Positions 18,525 through 24,509 of a stretch of DNA of 38,715 bases are shown here, one piece after another. Numbering within the stretch: position 1 is the stretch's first letter; every line of letters starts with the position of its first letter. This DNA comes from an uncultured Ectothiorhodospiraceae bacterium (GTDB taxonomy: Bacteria > Pseudomonadota > Gammaproteobacteria > UBA6429 > Thiohalophilaceae): contig CAMYMO010000217.1 in assembly GCA_947259425.1 (NCBI GenBank), positions 1-38,715 of the forward strand, given 5' to 3'. The notes beneath the pieces were generated by a model. That model made no database searches. It saw only the letters and a list, made by a program, of their open reading frames with translations, and was not told where the DNA came from. The position numbers and the translations under genes are program-made.

Positions 18525-19271
18525 TTAGGTAACGGTATATGTTTTTCGCATCTTTTCAAATACGTCCGGGCGCCAGGGGCGAAAGGCCAGAAAAAGGCTG
18601 TAACCGAATCTTTCTGTTAACGGTAAGGGACGATCTTGCTCATTGAGAATATGAAAATCCTGCACAAGCTGTTTGATGCGACGATTAAATTGATCGCAGG
18701 ATGATTTAGATAACATCCCTGATAGAAATTGGAATGTTTCTTCAACTTTATCGAAACGACTTTGTAAAAAATCCTCTTGCAGGTGTTCGGTAAAAAAACT
18801 TTGGATTGGACCATTGGGGCGCCAGGAGAATTTAGGTGAGATTCGCAATCGAATTCGATTGTTCGGTAACAGGTCAATCATTTTGATTCGGTCAAGCCGG
18901 GCAAGGTATTGAATTATTTCAGTTTCTGATAAGTCATACCAGGTGATGATATCTTCAAACTTCCAACCATTAATCACGACAAATGCAACTAACAACAACT
19001 TTATGTCAGCAGCCAGTTCAAGCTCTTGTTCTACGCTAAGTTGATTGAGCTGTTGATAATTTAACTCCATTTGTTTGACCAGATCGCTGATTTCTATTTC
19101 TAATAGCTGACAAATTTGATCCAGCCGTTGTAGTGAAAAATTCTGTTCAGCAAACAAACGTTTGATGCTGGCTTCACTGAGACCAAGCTTTTGACCGACA
19201 TCTCGATAGGTCAGGCCATGACTTTTGAGCATGGTTTTCAGGGTCGAGATGAGAGAGGTCGTTTGGCTCAT
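18525..19271 (-). CDS. XRE-family HTH transcriptional regulator with uncharacterised C-terminal domain
   Basis: N-terminus LKSHGLTYRDVGQKLGLSEASIKRLFAEQNFSLQRLDQICQLLEIEISDL is a Cro/C1-type HTH. It is divergent from the 19376 operon. Confidence 0.75.
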   Translation of the reverse strand: MSQTTSLISTLKTMLKSHGLTYRDVGQKLGLSEASIKRLFAEQNFSLQRLDQICQLLEIEISDLVKQMELNYQQLNQLSVEQELELAADIKLLLVAFVVINGWKFEDIITWYDLSETEIIQYLARLDRIKMIDLLPNNRIRLRISPKFSWRPNGPIQSFFTEHLQEDFLQSRFDKVEETFQFLSGMLSKSSCDQFNRRIKQLVQDFHILNEQDRPLPLTERFGYSLFLAFRPWRPDVFEKMRKTYTVT

Positions 19272-19375
19272 GGTGGTACACCGAGAAGTAGTGATAATTA
19301 ATACTTAATAGCCAAAATAGTGCAACTATTCAAGTAATGGTTGCATAAAATGCACCCATATACCACACTCATATC

Positions 19376-19837
19376 ATGGATGTCATCTCTACAGAGCTAT
19401 TTTATTCCCGCACTCAGCGCCAGCTTGGTGCCTGGATGATTTTGTTATTAGGGCTGTTTTCCGTTCGGGTTGTTGTCCAACTTCAGGTTCTATCAAACCC
19501 AATCACTTATTTACCGGAGTTTGAAGATTGGTACAGTGCTGTTATTCCCTACCAGCATTTGTTGATCAGCCAGGCGGTGATACTGGCGGGAGGCTGGGTT
19601 TATGTCTGGCGTTTGTTTAATACACGGGTTGTGCCTAATCCACGGTTAGGTAGGGCATTGTATTTTATCGGTTGGATCTATTGGTCTGTCATGTTTATCC
19701 GATTGATTTTGGGTTTTACCTTATTGTCTGATGTTCACTGGTTTGCCCAGGAATTACCCGCGCTGTTTCATTTACTGCTTGCCAACATATTGATGTTAGT
19801 GGGTCAGTATCATCGTGGAAATTGGCCTAGATCATGA
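19376..19837 (+). CDS. Hypothetical polytopic membrane protein (about 4 TM)
   Basis: Hydrophobic segments are visible in the translation. Its stop overlaps the next start (ATGA at 19834-19837). Confidence 0.6.
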   Translation: MDVISTELFYSRTQRQLGAWMILLLGLFSVRVVVQLQVLSNPITYLPEFEDWYSAVIPYQHLLISQAVILAGGWVYVWRLFNTRVVPNPRLGRALYFIGWIYWSVMFIRLILGFTLLSDVHWFAQELPALFHLLLANILMLVGQYHRGNWPRS

Positions 19838-22422
19838 CCAATGCCATTCAATCGAGTTTGCAATGGGTTATCTATCCATTGGTCATGCTGTCAGGTTTAA
19901 TCGGTTATTTGTTCTTACAGGCGAATTATTCGGGCGTGATCTGGATTGCTTATATTCCTGTGCTGGTTGCGACGATAGTTGTTACAGGATTGGAGATCCT
20001 GATTCCGCACAAGCGTGCCTGGTTGCCAAATCAATCGGATATTAAAACGGATACGGCTTACATGTTATTCGTACAAGTCGGCGTTCCGCTGATTCTTGGG
20101 ATTGGATTGGTGAGTATGATGCACGCGCCTATTTCGGAGTTTGGGAGTAAGACGTCCGGCTGGTGGCCTCATCATTGGCCGCTGCTGGCACAAGGCGGAG
20201 TGATGTTATTGGTCGCTGAATTTTTCAGTTATTGGTTACATCGTCTTGCGCATACGCTACCGGTATTGTGGCGTTTTCATGCGGTGCACCATTCATCTGA
20301 AAAACTCTATTGGTTAAACGTAGGACGGTTTCATCCTTTAGAGAAAATTCTTCAATATGTCGTGAGTACTTTTCCCTTTATGTTAATGGGTGTCAGTCAG
20401 GATGTATTGGGATTGTATTTTGTTTTTTATGGTATTAATGGATTTTTCCAGCATTCAAATATAAAAATCAAATACGGGGTATTAAATTATCTGGTTAGCA
20501 GTGCGACCTTACATCGCTGGCATCATTCTCCAAATATCGCCGAAGCAAATCATAATTATGGAAATAATTTAATCGTGTGGGATTTATTATTTGGGACCTG
20601 GTTTTTACCGCGCGATCGTCAAATCAATGAGGTTGGATCAGGTATGCAAAATTATCCGAAGTCATTTGCTCGACAATTGGTTAAACCCTTTGAAGGAATA
20701 GCTGCCAACATGAGGTCGAGGATTAGTTATTTTATTAGTATGTTGGTGATTAAAATAGTTGGGAATTATCTTATTTATAGATACTGGAAACCATTTATTA
20801 AAAAGTCAAAGAATCCGGAAATTTATCAACAAAATATTTTAAAAAAAATAATTCATAACAATGCCAGGACGCGGTTTGGACGACTGCATGGTTTTTCGCG
20901 AATTAAAACTGAAACTAAATTCAAGTTAGATGTACCGATTATGCAATACGAGGACATTGAGGCCTTCCTAACCGAGCAGGCGATAACGGCAAGCCCTGTT
21001 TTATACAATGACAAGCCATTATTTTATGCCAGGACGAGTGGTACAACGGGTCGTCCGAAGGATATACCGGTAACGAAAAACTCATTATCTGAATTAAAGC
21101 GACAGCAACGTTTATTGACCAGCTATCAATATCAGCTATGTCCTGAGGCCTTTTCAGGTAAAGCACTTGGTCTAGTCAGTCCTGCCATTGAAGGCTACCG
21201 GGACGATGACATCTCATACGGATCAGCATCAGGATATGTTTACAAAACCATGCCAGCTTTAATAAAAAATCGTTACGTTGTTCCCGCAGAGGTATTTGAC
21301 ATAACCGATTATGAGATGAAATATCGTGTGATATGTCGACTTGCCTTGGCGGAAGAAAATCTTACTTATTTAGGGACGGCGAATCCATCTACTTTTTTAC
21401 GTATACGCCAGTTATTAACAGATGAATGGGAAACATTGTTAACCAGCTTGAAAACAGGTGTATTGGAAGGCGTTGAGACATTACCTGAAGATTTACAGAC
21501 GTTATTGAACACAAAAATAAGACCGGAACTAGCCCGTTATGAAAAATTAAAAAAATTAAATTACTCCGAGTATCGAGAGTTCAAAGATATTTGGCCATCT
21601 ATTCGCATGCTTACTACCTGGACCGGAGGTAATTGCCAGGTTGCCTTAGAACGACTTAATAATTCATTGCCTAATGACGTTAAACTGATTGAGCTTGGAT
21701 ACGTTGCCAGTGAATTACGTAGTACGATAACGTGTGACCCAAAGACGAATGCGGGGATACCCGTTCTCGATCAGAATTATTACGAGTTTATTGAAAAGCA
21801 CGACTGGGATAATGGTCATCGGGAAACGCTGGGGATGTCTGAGCTTGAGTTAGGGAAACATTATTATATTATCGTGACAACGAATTATGGTTTATATCGA
21901 TATTTTATGAATGACCTTGTTGAAGTGTGTGGCGTATTCCAAAATACACCTTTAATTAAATTTATTCAAAAAGGCAATGGAGTGACTAATATCACCGGAG
22001 AAAAGGTATATGAAAACCAACTCAATGAAGCCATTCTCGACAGTTGCACTGAATTAGATTTACAGATCAATTTTCACATTACCCTGGCAAATGTCGTTCA
22101 AGCCCGGTATGAGGTCTATGTCGAACTCGAATCAAATGAAATGATCAATATATATGTGTTAGCACATGCCATTGATAAGAACTTGTCGAAATTAAATATC
22201 GAATATTCGGAAAAACGTAAAAGTGGTCGGTTGTTAGCACCGGCTATTTATAGCCTTAATCGGGGAACCGCTGAAGAATATAAGCAGTACCAGGTCAGTC
22301 GTGGGCAACGTGAGGGACAATATAAGCTTGTTACCCTGTTAGATAAAAGCCAGTTTAAGTTTCCTATTCAGGACTATCTTGCAAGAGTCGATGAAGAAGA
22401 CGCACGCCATGCTTCAAATTAA
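19834..22422 (+). CDS. Fusion protein: N-terminal fatty-acid hydroxylase/sterol desaturase-family membrane domain + C-terminal GH3-family acyl-acid amido synthetase (adenylating) domain
   Basis: His boxes HRLAH, HAVHH and HRWHH lie within a polytopic N-terminal ~270 aa. The C-terminal ~580 aa carry the P-loop-like YARTSGTTGRPKDIPVT and GH3-like length and layout. Confidence 0.8.
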   Translation: MTNAIQSSLQWVIYPLVMLSGLIGYLFLQANYSGVIWIAYIPVLVATIVVTGLEILIPHKRAWLPNQSDIKTDTAYMLFVQVGVPLILGIGLVSMMHAPISEFGSKTSGWWPHHWPLLAQGGVMLLVAEFFSYWLHRLAHTLPVLWRFHAVHHSSEKLYWLNVGRFHPLEKILQYVVSTFPFMLMGVSQDVLGLYFVFYGINGFFQHSNIKIKYGVLNYLVSSATLHRWHHSPNIAEANHNYGNNLIVWDLLFGTWFLPRDRQINEVGSGMQNYPKSFARQLVKPFEGIAANMRSRISYFISMLVIKIVGNYLIYRYWKPFIKKSKNPEIYQQNILKKIIHNNARTRFGRLHGFSRIKTETKFKLDVPIMQYEDIEAFLTEQAITASPVLYNDKPLFYARTSGTTGRPKDIPVTKNSLSELKRQQRLLTSYQYQLCPEAFSGKALGLVSPAIEGYRDDDISYGSASGYVYKTMPALIKNRYVVPAEVFDITDYEMKYRVICRLALAEENLTYLGTANPSTFLRIRQLLTDEWETLLTSLKTGVLEGVETLPEDLQTLLNTKIRPELARYEKLKKLNYSEYREFKDIWPSIRMLTTWTGGNCQVALERLNNSLPNDVKLIELGYVASELRSTITCDPKTNAGIPVLDQNYYEFIEKHDWDNGHRETLGMSELELGKHYYIIVTTNYGLYRYFMNDLVEVCGVFQNTPLIKFIQKGNGVTNITGEKVYENQLNEAILDSCTELDLQINFHITLANVVQARYEVYVELESNEMINIYVLAHAIDKNLSKLNIEYSEKRKSGRLLAPAIYSLNRGTAEEYKQYQVSRGQREGQYKLVTLLDKSQFKFPIQDYLARVDEEDARHASN

Positions 22423-23509
22423 AGATATAGAGTTTAAAGAGCTTAATATACCGTTTAATACGGCTTTTACTCATGCATCGGCATCTCGTCATTCAACCCA
22501 GACTATTTGGGTGAAAATTACAACAACTTGTGGTTTAACGGGATATGGCGAGGGATGTCCTCGTGAATACGTAACCGGTGAGTCACTTGAGTCGGCGCTG
22601 AGATTTATTGCCGACCAGAAAAAGGTTGTACTGGAGGACATACATGACTTGTCAACACTAACTGATTGGGTTAATGAAAATGAAAAATTAATCGACTCTA
22701 ATCCGGCTGCCTGGTGTGCAATTGAGTTAGCGCTGTTAGATATCATCGCACAAAATGAATATTGTAGTATCGAGAACTTATTGGATGTGCCGATTATTCG
22801 AGAAAGTTTTACATATACTGCTGTACTGGGTAATAACAAATTTTCAGCTTTTAAGCGCCAAGCCCTTCAGTATAAAAAGTTAGGGTTTCTGGACTTCAAA
22901 ATAAAATTATCGGGCAATTTGAAAGAAGATACAGAAAAACTGGACTTTTTATCAAAGTCACACAGTGCTGTTAGAATTCGTGTTGATGCCAATAATTTAT
23001 GGAAAAATAAAGACGAGGTAGTCGAGTATGTGTGTGAACTCAACAGCCCTATTTTTGCGATAGAAGAACCGATTGATCCTGAACAGTATGAAGATCTACA
23101 GGCAATATCGCGATCGCTGGCTATACCGATCATATTGGATGAAAGTTTACGAAGGAGATCACAGTTAGACTATGTTAAAAAAAATCCGTCGAACTGGATA
23201 TTAAATGTCCGAGTTTCAAAAATGGGCGGGCTGATACGATCCCTAAAGGTAATACAGGAAGCGCGCAAACATCGTCTTCCATTAATAGTTGGTGCTCATG
23301 TTGGCGAAACCAGCTTGTTAACCAGAGCAGGTTTCGTTATTGCCCAGGCAGCACATGATTCACTATTGGCACATGAAGGTGGGTTCGGTCGCTACCTGTT
23401 GAAAGAGGATGTATGTGATGAGTCTCTTATGTTTGGTCGTAATGGAAAAATTCAATATTCACTCGATAAATTGTCCAGTCCTGGATTTGGATTAGCCATC
23501 AATAGTTAG
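22409..23509 (+). CDS. Enolase-superfamily enzyme, muconate-lactonizing-enzyme subgroup (dipeptide epimerase / N-acyl-amino-acid racemase-like)
   Basis: I prefer ATG 22409 (MLQIKDIEFKELNIPF...), which overlaps the upstream stop by 14 nt. The track starts at TTG 22379. KxK motif FKIKL, metal ligands in RVDANN / IEEP / ILDES, and a second catalytic Lys in NVRVSKMGG. Confidence 0.8.
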   Translation: MLQIKDIEFKELNIPFNTAFTHASASRHSTQTIWVKITTTCGLTGYGEGCPREYVTGESLESALRFIADQKKVVLEDIHDLSTLTDWVNENEKLIDSNPAAWCAIELALLDIIAQNEYCSIENLLDVPIIRESFTYTAVLGNNKFSAFKRQALQYKKLGFLDFKIKLSGNLKEDTEKLDFLSKSHSAVRIRVDANNLWKNKDEVVEYVCELNSPIFAIEEPIDPEQYEDLQAISRSLAIPIILDESLRRRSQLDYVKKNPSNWILNVRVSKMGGLIRSLKVIQEARKHRLPLIVGAHVGETSLLTRAGFVIAQAAHDSLLAHEGGFGRYLLKEDVCDESLMFGRNGKIQYSLDKLSSPGFGLAINS

Positions 23510-23739: not shown

Positions 23740-24141
23740 TTAATTAGCTGTTTTTTTCACAAACGGAAAGATATCGGTATAACCCATAATATCAGTAAAC
23801 AATAAAACCAAAAAAACAATCAATGCGACTTCGAGTAATCCAGCGCCAGCGGGTAGCTCATCCATCTGTTCATTCATTAACCGAACTTCGTCCGCCGTCA
23901 TTGACATAACGCGTTGTTTGGCCAGTTCGGGGTCGACGCCACTATCGGTTAATGCGGTTCTGACTTCCTCGCGATCGAGAGTTTGTAATAGTTTGTCACG
24001 GTCGATTTGATGTTGTCCTTGAGTGACCAGATCAGCACTGGTGACAATACCGGCATTGACGGACGATAAAGCGCAGATATACAACATTGTTACGATGAGT
24101 AATTTTGGTATTAATCGATTTTTAGCGAGCTGAGCAAACAT
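23740..24141 (-). CDS. PA2779-family-like small secreted/membrane-anchored protein
   Basis: GGAGG RBS then ATG at 24141 (the track starts at TTG 24153). N-terminal signal, central 'EVRTALTDSGVDPELAKQRVMSMTADEVRLMNEQMDELPAG', and a C-terminal TM ending TDIFPFV. This resembles my memory of the Pseudomonas PA2779 family. Confidence 0.5.
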   Translation of the reverse strand: MFAQLAKNRLIPKLLIVTMLYICALSSVNAGIVTSADLVTQGQHQIDRDKLLQTLDREEVRTALTDSGVDPELAKQRVMSMTADEVRLMNEQMDELPAGAGLLEVALIVFLVLLFTDIMGYTDIFPFVKKTAN

Positions 24142-24509
24142 AATTACCTCCAAATTAGAATTTTTATGTATAAATAGTATGCAGTCATATCAGCTGATTA
24201 GGTATTTGATGATATTTTACCATGAATCCACTAGCTAGTTCGCAAAGAGCATGCCCAACTGACGAAAGCACAGACTTATGACGTCACAGATAGCCAATTA
24301 GGCTCGTGACACGGTATCTTGTGATGCAGTTCACACTTTTTAAGGGATTCAGCCCCGAACGCGTCGTTTTCGGGGCGAGGAATCTGCTTTCAGGTTCTGA
24401 TCTTGAATATAATACGAACCATGAAAAATGCTAATCGTCAGTGAGTACAGCACAAGTGATATCAGTTTTAATAAGGAATACAACCAACAAGGTAACTGGT
24501 TTTAACCAG

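Follow-up and report, generated by a model that had tools for sequence, protein, structure and literature searches.

Aminolipid synthesis that depends on a GH3-type enzyme was first described in 2025, and thousands of bacterial GH3 homologues are without known function (PMC12493201). In the pathway of Singulisphaera acidiphila, the GH3-type ATP-dependent ligase OlsH takes the first step, joining a free fatty acid to ornithine with the use of ATP and Mg2+ so that N-acyl ornithine is formed, the alpha/beta-hydrolase OlsI then adds the second chain, and the genes (with OlsG) form an operon with tailoring enzymes; other amino acids are expected by the authors to be used by other bacterial GH3 homologues (PMC12493201). 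OlsE of Rhizobium tropici and Agrobacterium, a free-standing di-iron enzyme of the FA_hydroxylase superfamily, hydroxylates C4 of the ornithine head group (reviewed in PMC12971839). The plant members of the GH3 family (JAR1, GH3.12/PBS3 and GH3.5) are soluble enzymes that conjugate hormones, by adenylation and then amide formation. Here we analyse a 38,715-nucleotide (nt) contig of an uncultured Ectothiorhodospiraceae bacterium (CAMYMO010000217.1; the whole stretch is called the window), which carries a cassette of three genes for a small membrane protein, a fusion of a hydroxylase to a GH3 ligase, and an enzyme of the enolase superfamily.

We think it rather probable that this cassette makes and tailors a lipoamino acid (aminolipid) by an uncharacterised pathway. 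All three genes are on the forward strand. The first encodes a 153-amino-acid (aa) protein with four transmembrane helices (4-TM; 19376-19837), the second the 862-aa hydroxylase-GH3 fusion (19834-22422) and the third a 366-aa enolase-superfamily protein (22409-23509, in a reading frame open from 22379). The ATGA at 19834-19837 combines the stop of the 4-TM gene with the start of the fusion gene, and the fusion ends in a TAA at 22420-22422, which gives a 14-nt overlap with the enolase-family gene if the latter begins at ATG 22409. This start was chosen because the N-termini of orthologues agree (MLQIKDIEF in the window, MLKIKKIEF in related locus L081, MLRIANIEV in L082). An earlier note on this DNA, made by reading the letters, had described the same open reading frames and both overlaps, and these were located where it placed them.

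The fusion protein consists of an OlsE-like di-iron membrane hydroxylase domain (residues 1-288; 19834-20697), whose end was placed from the split genes of Acidobacteriota and Dehalococcoidia described below, and a GH3-type acyl-acid amido synthetase domain (residues ~318-862; 20785-22422). Pfam FA_hydroxylase (PF04116) matches residues 123-255 with 104.9 bits (cut-off 31), and Pfam GH3 N, M and C (PF03321, PF23571, PF23572) together cover residues 321-838 with 193.5, 72.3 and 52.7 bits (cut-off 23.6). Assignment to the FA_hydroxylase superfamily was based on a score above the cut-off together with three His boxes (HX4H, HX2HH, HX2HH), as which we counted HRLAH (residues 136-140; nt 20239-20253), HAVHH (residues 149-153; nt 20278-20292) and HRWHH (residues 227-231; nt 20512-20526). 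For the GH3 domain, the P-loop-like S/TSGTT..K, YGSS-type and YRxGD-type nucleotide motifs were likewise counted as present in TSGTTGRPK (residues 401-409; nt 21034-21060), YGSASG (residues 462-467; nt 21217-21234) and YRYFMND (residues 688-694; nt 21895-21915). In an alignment of 16 diverse fusion homologues of 40-69% identity, the His boxes and the core residues of the nucleotide motifs were invariant. The earlier note had already picked out the His boxes and TSGTTGRPK, and both are borne out by the Pfam matches and by this conservation.

Just three of 18950 NCBIfam models match the fusion: OlsE, OlsH and, marginally, DltA (E 0.005). The match to OlsE (NF052566) extends over profile positions 3-284 of 293 with an E of 1.7e-60, and residues 1-287 of the fusion span the whole profile with all its His boxes; at 204.9 bits against an equivalog cut-off of 475, the resemblance is at the level of a paralogue, and the window hydroxylase is fused to a ligase whereas OlsE is not. 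The OlsH model (NF052613) gives 87.7 bits, with its best stretch at profile positions 35-227, against an equivalog cut-off of 620. OlsH and the window domain have the GH3 nucleotide motifs in common, but only the latter is fused to a hydroxylase. By these scores both halves of the fusion are akin to the two ornithine-lipid families but do not belong to them. It speaks for a lipoamino-acid product that the NCBIfam matches other than marginal DltA are both to aminolipid enzymes. The N-acyl amino acid that the earlier note proposed as product fits these homologies, OlsH being an N-acyl-ornithine synthetase and the N-terminal half of the fusion spanning the OlsE profile. The gene content differs from the OlsH pathway: the window has neither OlsG nor an adjacent OlsI-type alpha/beta-hydrolase O-acyltransferase, and the enolase-superfamily enzyme and the 4-TM protein are the obligatory partners instead.

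Plant GH3 enzymes are the sole solved structures that match the GH3 domain (E 1e-28 to 1e-23), with JAR1 and GH3.12 at E 1e-28 and ~103 bits, and their two-step chemistry is what we propose for it. Thus the domain is as close to these hormone-conjugating enzymes as to OlsH (88 bits), and the substrate range of the GH3 family is broad (PMC12493201), which would suit a cassette that conjugates and modifies a non-lipid acid (aromatic, hormone-like or xenobiotic) for signalling or detoxification. We consider this distinctly unlikely, since the ligase, unlike the soluble plant enzymes, is tethered to the membrane by covalent attachment to an integral-membrane, lipid-type OlsE-like hydroxylase and has a link to the 4-TM protein as well, and since the hosts are mostly metagenome-assembled genomes (MAGs) of many phyla from marine, sediment, groundwater and soil sources. 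Between the two domains is a hydrophobic helix (residues 297-315; nt 20722-20778), with which the separate GH3 proteins begin in genomes with split genes. This helix may cross the membrane or rest on its surface; if it crossed completely, the ligase, which depends on ATP, would come to be on the wrong side.

The window consists of one metagenomic contig and separate hydroxylase and GH3 genes occur in some lineages, so that the 862-aa protein could in principle be an assembly or frameshift artefact joining two genes. A search of 5.8 billion proteins, with 8000 candidates scored, returned 1030 matches to the fusion with E <= 0.001, and each of the 120 matches listed is ~850 aa long with these same four domains of Pfam. 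Fused full-length homologues make up more than 1000 protein clusters. Scanning one genome per species, at least 564 species genomes in ~14 phyla were confirmed to have the cassette fusion locus, and 80 of these loci were kept for the counts given here. The hydroxylase and GH3 domains are fused in 68 of the 80, and the junction residues between them are conserved among homologues. As far as sequence can tell, the artefact explanation is therefore rejected, and we give it practically no credence. The survey of phyletic distribution that the earlier note had asked for shows the fusion to be widespread; the hosts of the 80 loci belong to Pseudomonadota, Bacteroidota, Acidobacteriota, Verrucomicrobiota, Planctomycetota, Gemmatimonadota, Latescibacterota and Chloroflexota, with several lineages represented by a single MAG.

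Of the 80 loci, 78 leave room for an enolase-family gene after GH3 (two contigs end at this point), and in 76 of these one follows GH3 immediately and in the same direction, with gaps mostly of -22 to +94 nt; this upholds the association on which the earlier note had made its proposal depend. When look-ups were seeded from the enolase-family protein instead, it lay directly after a GH3 gene in 4/4, and no GH3-enolase pair lacking the hydroxylase was seen in four extra contexts, two of them cut at a contig end. The 4-TM gene is upstream of the fusion in 55/80 loci, usually within ~100 nt. In the three closest relatives (54-69% identity) the three-gene core is retained among unrelated flanks, and outside the core every gene family was limited to at most a fifth of the 80 loci. 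We count this strong co-conservation, together with the domain content and the invariant catalytic motifs in both halves of the fusion, in favour of the lipoamino-acid pathway.

In Acidobacteriota and Dehalococcoidia, the hydroxylase (~290 aa) and GH3 (~546 aa) are separate adjacent genes. The two genes of such a pair are in the same frame and divided by one stop (TGA, TAA or TAG), which comes directly after the conserved APF.R end of the hydroxylase and is followed by a new ATG 2-8 codons on (L009:6799-6920, with corresponding junctions in L025, L027, L068, L072, L076 and L078). Fusion and fission thus seem to happen by point change. Recoding at these in-frame stops was considered and rejected, as the stop varies among TGA, TAA and TAG and is each time followed by a new ATG at the boundary. 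Locus L087 has the fully split form, with five genes for 4-TM protein, hydroxylase, GH3, enolase-type enzyme and an S15 hydrolase. Further fusions were also found: the 4-TM protein is joined in frame ahead of hydroxylase-GH3 in P0010 (1007 aa), P0120 (1053 aa), L001 and L063, to the hydroxylase alone in P0193, and to a Peptidase_S15/PepX_C hydrolase in L011, P0150 and P0185. Since gene fusions tie the parts of the cassette together, we regard them as one functional unit. That the hydroxylase and GH3 are either fused or adjacent, and that gene fusions link all membrane parts, is a second argument for a shared lipoamino-acid product.

The third protein belongs to the enolase superfamily, with Pfam MR_MLE_N and MR_MLE_C matches of 87.5 and 30.5 bits and three carboxylate metal ligands where strands 3, 4 and 5 end. 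These ligands (D203, E229 and D254), which align to those of 3jva, 2p88 and 1jpm, and the motif K174-x-K176 (nt 22898-22906), which provides the catalytic Lys of strand 2, are invariant among 68 enolase-family sequences. Since both KxK and the metal triad are invariant, the protein is, judged by its residues, a working proton-abstracting enzyme. When a family profile of 39 members was compared with PDB sequences, the best matches were 2p88 (6.6e-44), 3jva, 1jpm and 3r0k, enzymes whose substrates are N-acylated amino acids or dipeptides; 3jva and 1jpm are dipeptide epimerases. The family and the MLE-subgroup enzymes (MLE, muconate-lactonizing enzyme; 2p88, 3jva, 1jpm/1tkk and NSAR/OSBS) thus share, by sequence, the same two-domain fold, the strand-2 KxK, the D/E/D ligands and the GG after strand 6.

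The likeness ends at the catalytic position of strand 6. By definition, an enzyme of the MLE subgroup has one catalytic lysine at the end of strand 2 and another at that of strand 6 (bioRxiv 10.1101/2022.03.03.481873). The window family has N-l-R-v-s-K-m-G-G here, which aligns gap-free to N-I-K-L-M-K-x-G-G of 2p88, 3jva, 1jpm and 3r0k, so that R278 (nt 23210-23212), an Arg in 67/68 relatives, falls on the K of NIK, and the invariant K281 falls three residues on. This order, Arg at the strand-6 position and Lys at +3, is the reverse of the K...R/K of NSAR and dipeptide epimerases, in which the +3 residue is second-shell and makes no substrate contact (R266 in the Amycolatopsis NSAR; K271, next to catalytic K268, in the B. 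subtilis epimerase; bioRxiv 10.1101/2022.03.03.481873). Because the strand-6 Lys is an Arg, the protein falls outside the MLE subgroup as defined. The earlier note had read a complete KxK / D-E-D / K signature; the KxK and D-E-D parts of it are invariant and stand, whereas the last K does not, and the Lys counted there was probably K281.

Other features separate the family from the known racemases and epimerases in the same direction. It has an invariant GEGCPRxYVTGE loop, H32 and R37, which set it apart from the MLE-subgroup enzymes, and always occurs in a GH3 context. Dipeptide epimerases bind the free ammonium group of their substrate by a DxD motif after strand 8; in the family profile, A-F-G stands opposite the DFD of 3q45 and the motif is absent, as would fit an N-acylated substrate. 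The best NCBIfam match is to DgcA (N-acetyl-D-Glu racemase), at 102.5 bits against a cut-off of 400; the L-Ala-D/L-Glu epimerase model gives 87.2 bits (cut-off 500) and the OSBS/NSAR-type models 83.6 bits (cut-off 200.65), and by these scores and residues the protein is a member neither of the dipeptide epimerases nor of NSAR/DgcA.

These comparisons bear on the idea, put forward in the earlier note, that the third enzyme is an MLE-subgroup N-acyl-amino-acid racemase or epimerase and the end product a hydroxylated N-acyl-D-amino acid. Its nearest solved relatives are indeed 2p88, which we take to be an N-succinyl-Arg/Lys racemase, and the dipeptide epimerases, DgcA is its best NCBIfam match, and the KxK and metal ligands are in place. 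However, the Lys that the MLE subgroup needs at strand 6 is Arg almost throughout the family, and all racemase and epimerase models score far under their cut-offs. We thus judge this outcome unlikely, and a classical two-base racemase is unlikely on the same residues. The racemase assignment is unsupported, both the strand-6 Lys and the DxD of dipeptide epimerases being absent, and the suggestion of a D-form is weakened, since the Lys required for two-base transfer has been replaced. Instead, the conserved positions mark the partner as a distinct Lys/Arg family and not an MLE-type racemase. The kinship has a further use, in that the nearest relatives of the family (2p88 and the dipeptide epimerases) act on substrates of the form R-CO-NH-CH(R')-COO-, and this too supports a lipoamino acid as the compound being processed.

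A pathway to such a lipoamino acid can be outlined from these parts. By homology, the GH3 domain would use ATP to adenylate a free carboxylic acid, for which its tether to a membrane enzyme makes a fatty acid the most likely choice. It would then pass the acyl group on to an amino acid, at the alpha-amino position, so that an N-acyl amino acid results. The membrane-embedded OlsE-like di-iron domain would hydroxylate this conjugate. The conserved residues of the soluble enolase partner suggest that it would hold the free alpha-carboxylate through Mg2+ on D203, E229 and D254 while K176 removes the alpha-proton. With Arg in place of the Lys on the opposite face, a one-base reaction would be likelier than two-base racemisation. 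A candidate outcome is beta-elimination of the hydroxyl put on by the hydroxylase, which would leave an N-acyl dehydroamino acid, an attractive possibility because the enzyme has one Lys base and an intact metal site and shares its operon with a hydroxylase; alternatively, the alpha-centre might be inverted using a different proton donor. More tentatively, we regard it as possible that the product is an undescribed class of lipoamino acid, that the Lys/Arg enolase family acts directly on a lipid-linked amino acid (by dehydration or non-canonical inversion), and that di-iron hydroxylases would have in the 4-TM protein a membrane partner of a new kind.

Several points weigh against the lipoamino-acid pathway or parts of it. 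The product is unobserved. The substrates of neither OlsE nor OlsH can be transferred to the fusion because the scores fall so far below the cut-offs (205 against 475 and 88 against 620), and GH3 enzymes conjugate non-lipid acids as well, over a broad substrate range (PMC12493201). OlsE hydroxylates C4 (PMC12971839), which is not a beta position, and dehydration would need a different regiochemistry. Two-base 1,1-proton transfer by the enolase partner is not expected, although Arg at strand 6 is no strict bar to racemisation. Finally, as the window has no O-acyltransferase candidate (OlsI-like or S15), a two-chain membrane lipid is perhaps not the end product here.

The 4-TM protein had zero matches in Pfam, NCBIfam or PDB sequences. 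An AlphaFold2 (AF2) model built with 40 homologues has four long helices (pLDDT, the predicted local distance difference test, 92.4), to which no PDB fold was matched with E below 1. Polar residues invariant within the helices are R31, Q35, Y59, Q66, Y102, R109, W122 and H132. At 50% clustering the family has 1159 representatives, most of them stand-alone proteins of 140-160 aa. A heme-binding, cytochrome-b-like role was considered and found to be unsupported, with one invariant His and no PDB fold of E<1. From its fusions we infer that the protein is a partner of the hydroxylase, and elsewhere of the S15 alpha/beta-hydrolase, and it may serve as a membrane scaffold or substrate-handling subunit of the hydroxylase. 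In P0208 (484 aa), a 4-TM domain is C-terminal to a MurB-like protein (FAD_binding_4 + MurB_C); this may reflect faulty gene calling or else an unrelated fusion.

Accessory genes are added to the core in other genomes. A frequent fifth member is an S15 (CocE/NonD-type) alpha/beta-hydrolase gene, a possible counterpart of the O-acyltransferase OlsI, which is beside the cassette in 16/80 loci, and also in L082, L084, L086 and L087 (Peptidase_S15/PepX_C hydrolases at L011:757-2895, L082:9706-11421, L086:230-2413 and L087:6150-7883, and in P0150). A subclade of Bacteroidota and Ignavibacteriota has a P450 and a 2-oxoacid-dehydrogenase-type acyltransferase, sometimes with an LCM methyltransferase. 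The P450 and the acyltransferase (254 aa, DHxxxDG) take the place of the 4-TM gene in L023, L064, L066, L071, L075, L080 and L056, and the LCM-type methyltransferase was found in five loci (L004, L005, L022, L039 and L064). The addition of acyltransferase, P450, methyltransferase or S15 hydrolase in some lineages resembles lipid-tailoring clusters and is a further point in favour of a lipoamino-acid product. None of these four accessory genes had a match within the window, which for this reason is a minimal, regulator-linked form of a widespread cassette.

The S15 hydrolases also bear on a catabolic explanation, in which the cassette would be a salvage route for N-acyl or D-amino-acid derivatives, like the NSAR-type D-to-L operons. 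Hydrolases of this type accompany the cassette in some genomes, and enolase-family racemases do act in such pathways (bioRxiv 10.1101/2022.03.03.481873). However, the central enzyme is an ATP-consuming ligase instead of an amidohydrolase, neither transporters nor deacylases are kept with the core in the 80 loci, and the S15 gene is absent from the window, and we hold salvage to be very improbable.

The earlier note knew of no characterised bacterial pathway with this fusion. This stands for the fusion and its enolase partner, which are undescribed in the literature searched: searches on a hydroxylase-GH3 fusion or on the gene triad found no paper, and a search of PMC12493201 and PMC12971839 by terms found no mention of an enolase, a racemase or a fusion. 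It has to be qualified for the single enzymes, of which OlsH/OlsI (2025) and OlsE are characterised relatives. Among the bacterial GH3 homologues, the cassette makes up a large coherent subset, spread over many marine, sediment, soil and groundwater lineages, and its fixed partners point beyond simple N-acylation. It may be the source of amino-acid lipids or N-acyl amino acids whose genes are still to be assigned in lipidomics, and would offer a route to hydroxylated lipoamino-acid surfactants that is independent of acyl carrier protein and coenzyme A. If the proposed pathway is true, its third enzyme would be the first of the enolase superfamily in membrane-lipid or lipoamino-acid biosynthesis, and the natural Lys-to-Arg change in the active site would provide a model for the partitioning between racemisation and elimination. 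The three-gene form of the window, with its own regulator and candidate operator, is a compact unit that should be easily expressed.

That regulator is a divergent XRE-family protein of 248 aa (18525-19271, reverse strand), with Pfam matches to HTH_26 (38.1 bits, cut-off 22) and HTH_3 (26.6 bits, cut-off 23). In its AF2 model, the helix-turn-helix alone matches PDB folds (ClgR and C.BclI); the C-terminal domain (~175 aa) had no match in Pfam or among PDB folds. Nine other loci have an orthologue divergent to their cassette, among them L081, L083, L001, L036, L042, L062, L034 and L021. The shared upstream region holds the inverted repeat TGCAAC-N13-GTTGCA (19321-19345), 31 nt before the 4-TM gene, which is a candidate operator and the only match to this pattern in the window (0.10 expected). 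L001 (45% protein identity) and L082 have exact copies in the corresponding place, and in 8 loci, where 0.5 were expected, a copy with at most two mismatches precedes the 4-TM gene by 28-59 nt. The divergent XRE gene and the repeat had both been reported in the earlier note, and both were found. A sigma-54 promoter was also considered for the palindrome and rejected because the spacing is unfit.

On this arrangement, the XRE regulator probably controls the cassette, and we infer binding either at the palindrome or at a second block, GTA(T)-N9-11-(A)TAC, at 19290-19306 beside the start of the regulator gene. When the intergenic regions of the window, L081, L083, L001 and L082 were aligned, this palindrome-like block proved to be conserved; it was found also in L034 and L021, and is a possible autoregulatory operator. 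In L082, the exact palindrome (L082:5445-5469) precedes the cassette of the closest relative, next to a DsrE-like gene and with no adjacent XRE gene, and for this reason the protein that binds the palindrome is possibly encoded elsewhere or is not the XRE protein.

The whole window had zero matches in Rfam, promoter and terminator scans within the cassette gave nothing exceeding chance, and no public sequencing runs were found when these were sought as evidence of expression. Directly 3' of the cassette and convergent with it is a gene for a small DUF6627 / PA2779-family protein (23740-24153, reverse strand), which had a detected homologue in none of the 80 related loci. Signalling genes, none of which is kept beside the cassette in other genomes, are abundant on the contig (16623-18017, 24441-25862, 33397-35580 and 36843-38693) and include GGDEF and GGDEF-EAL proteins, PAS histidine kinases and a Ser/Thr kinase.

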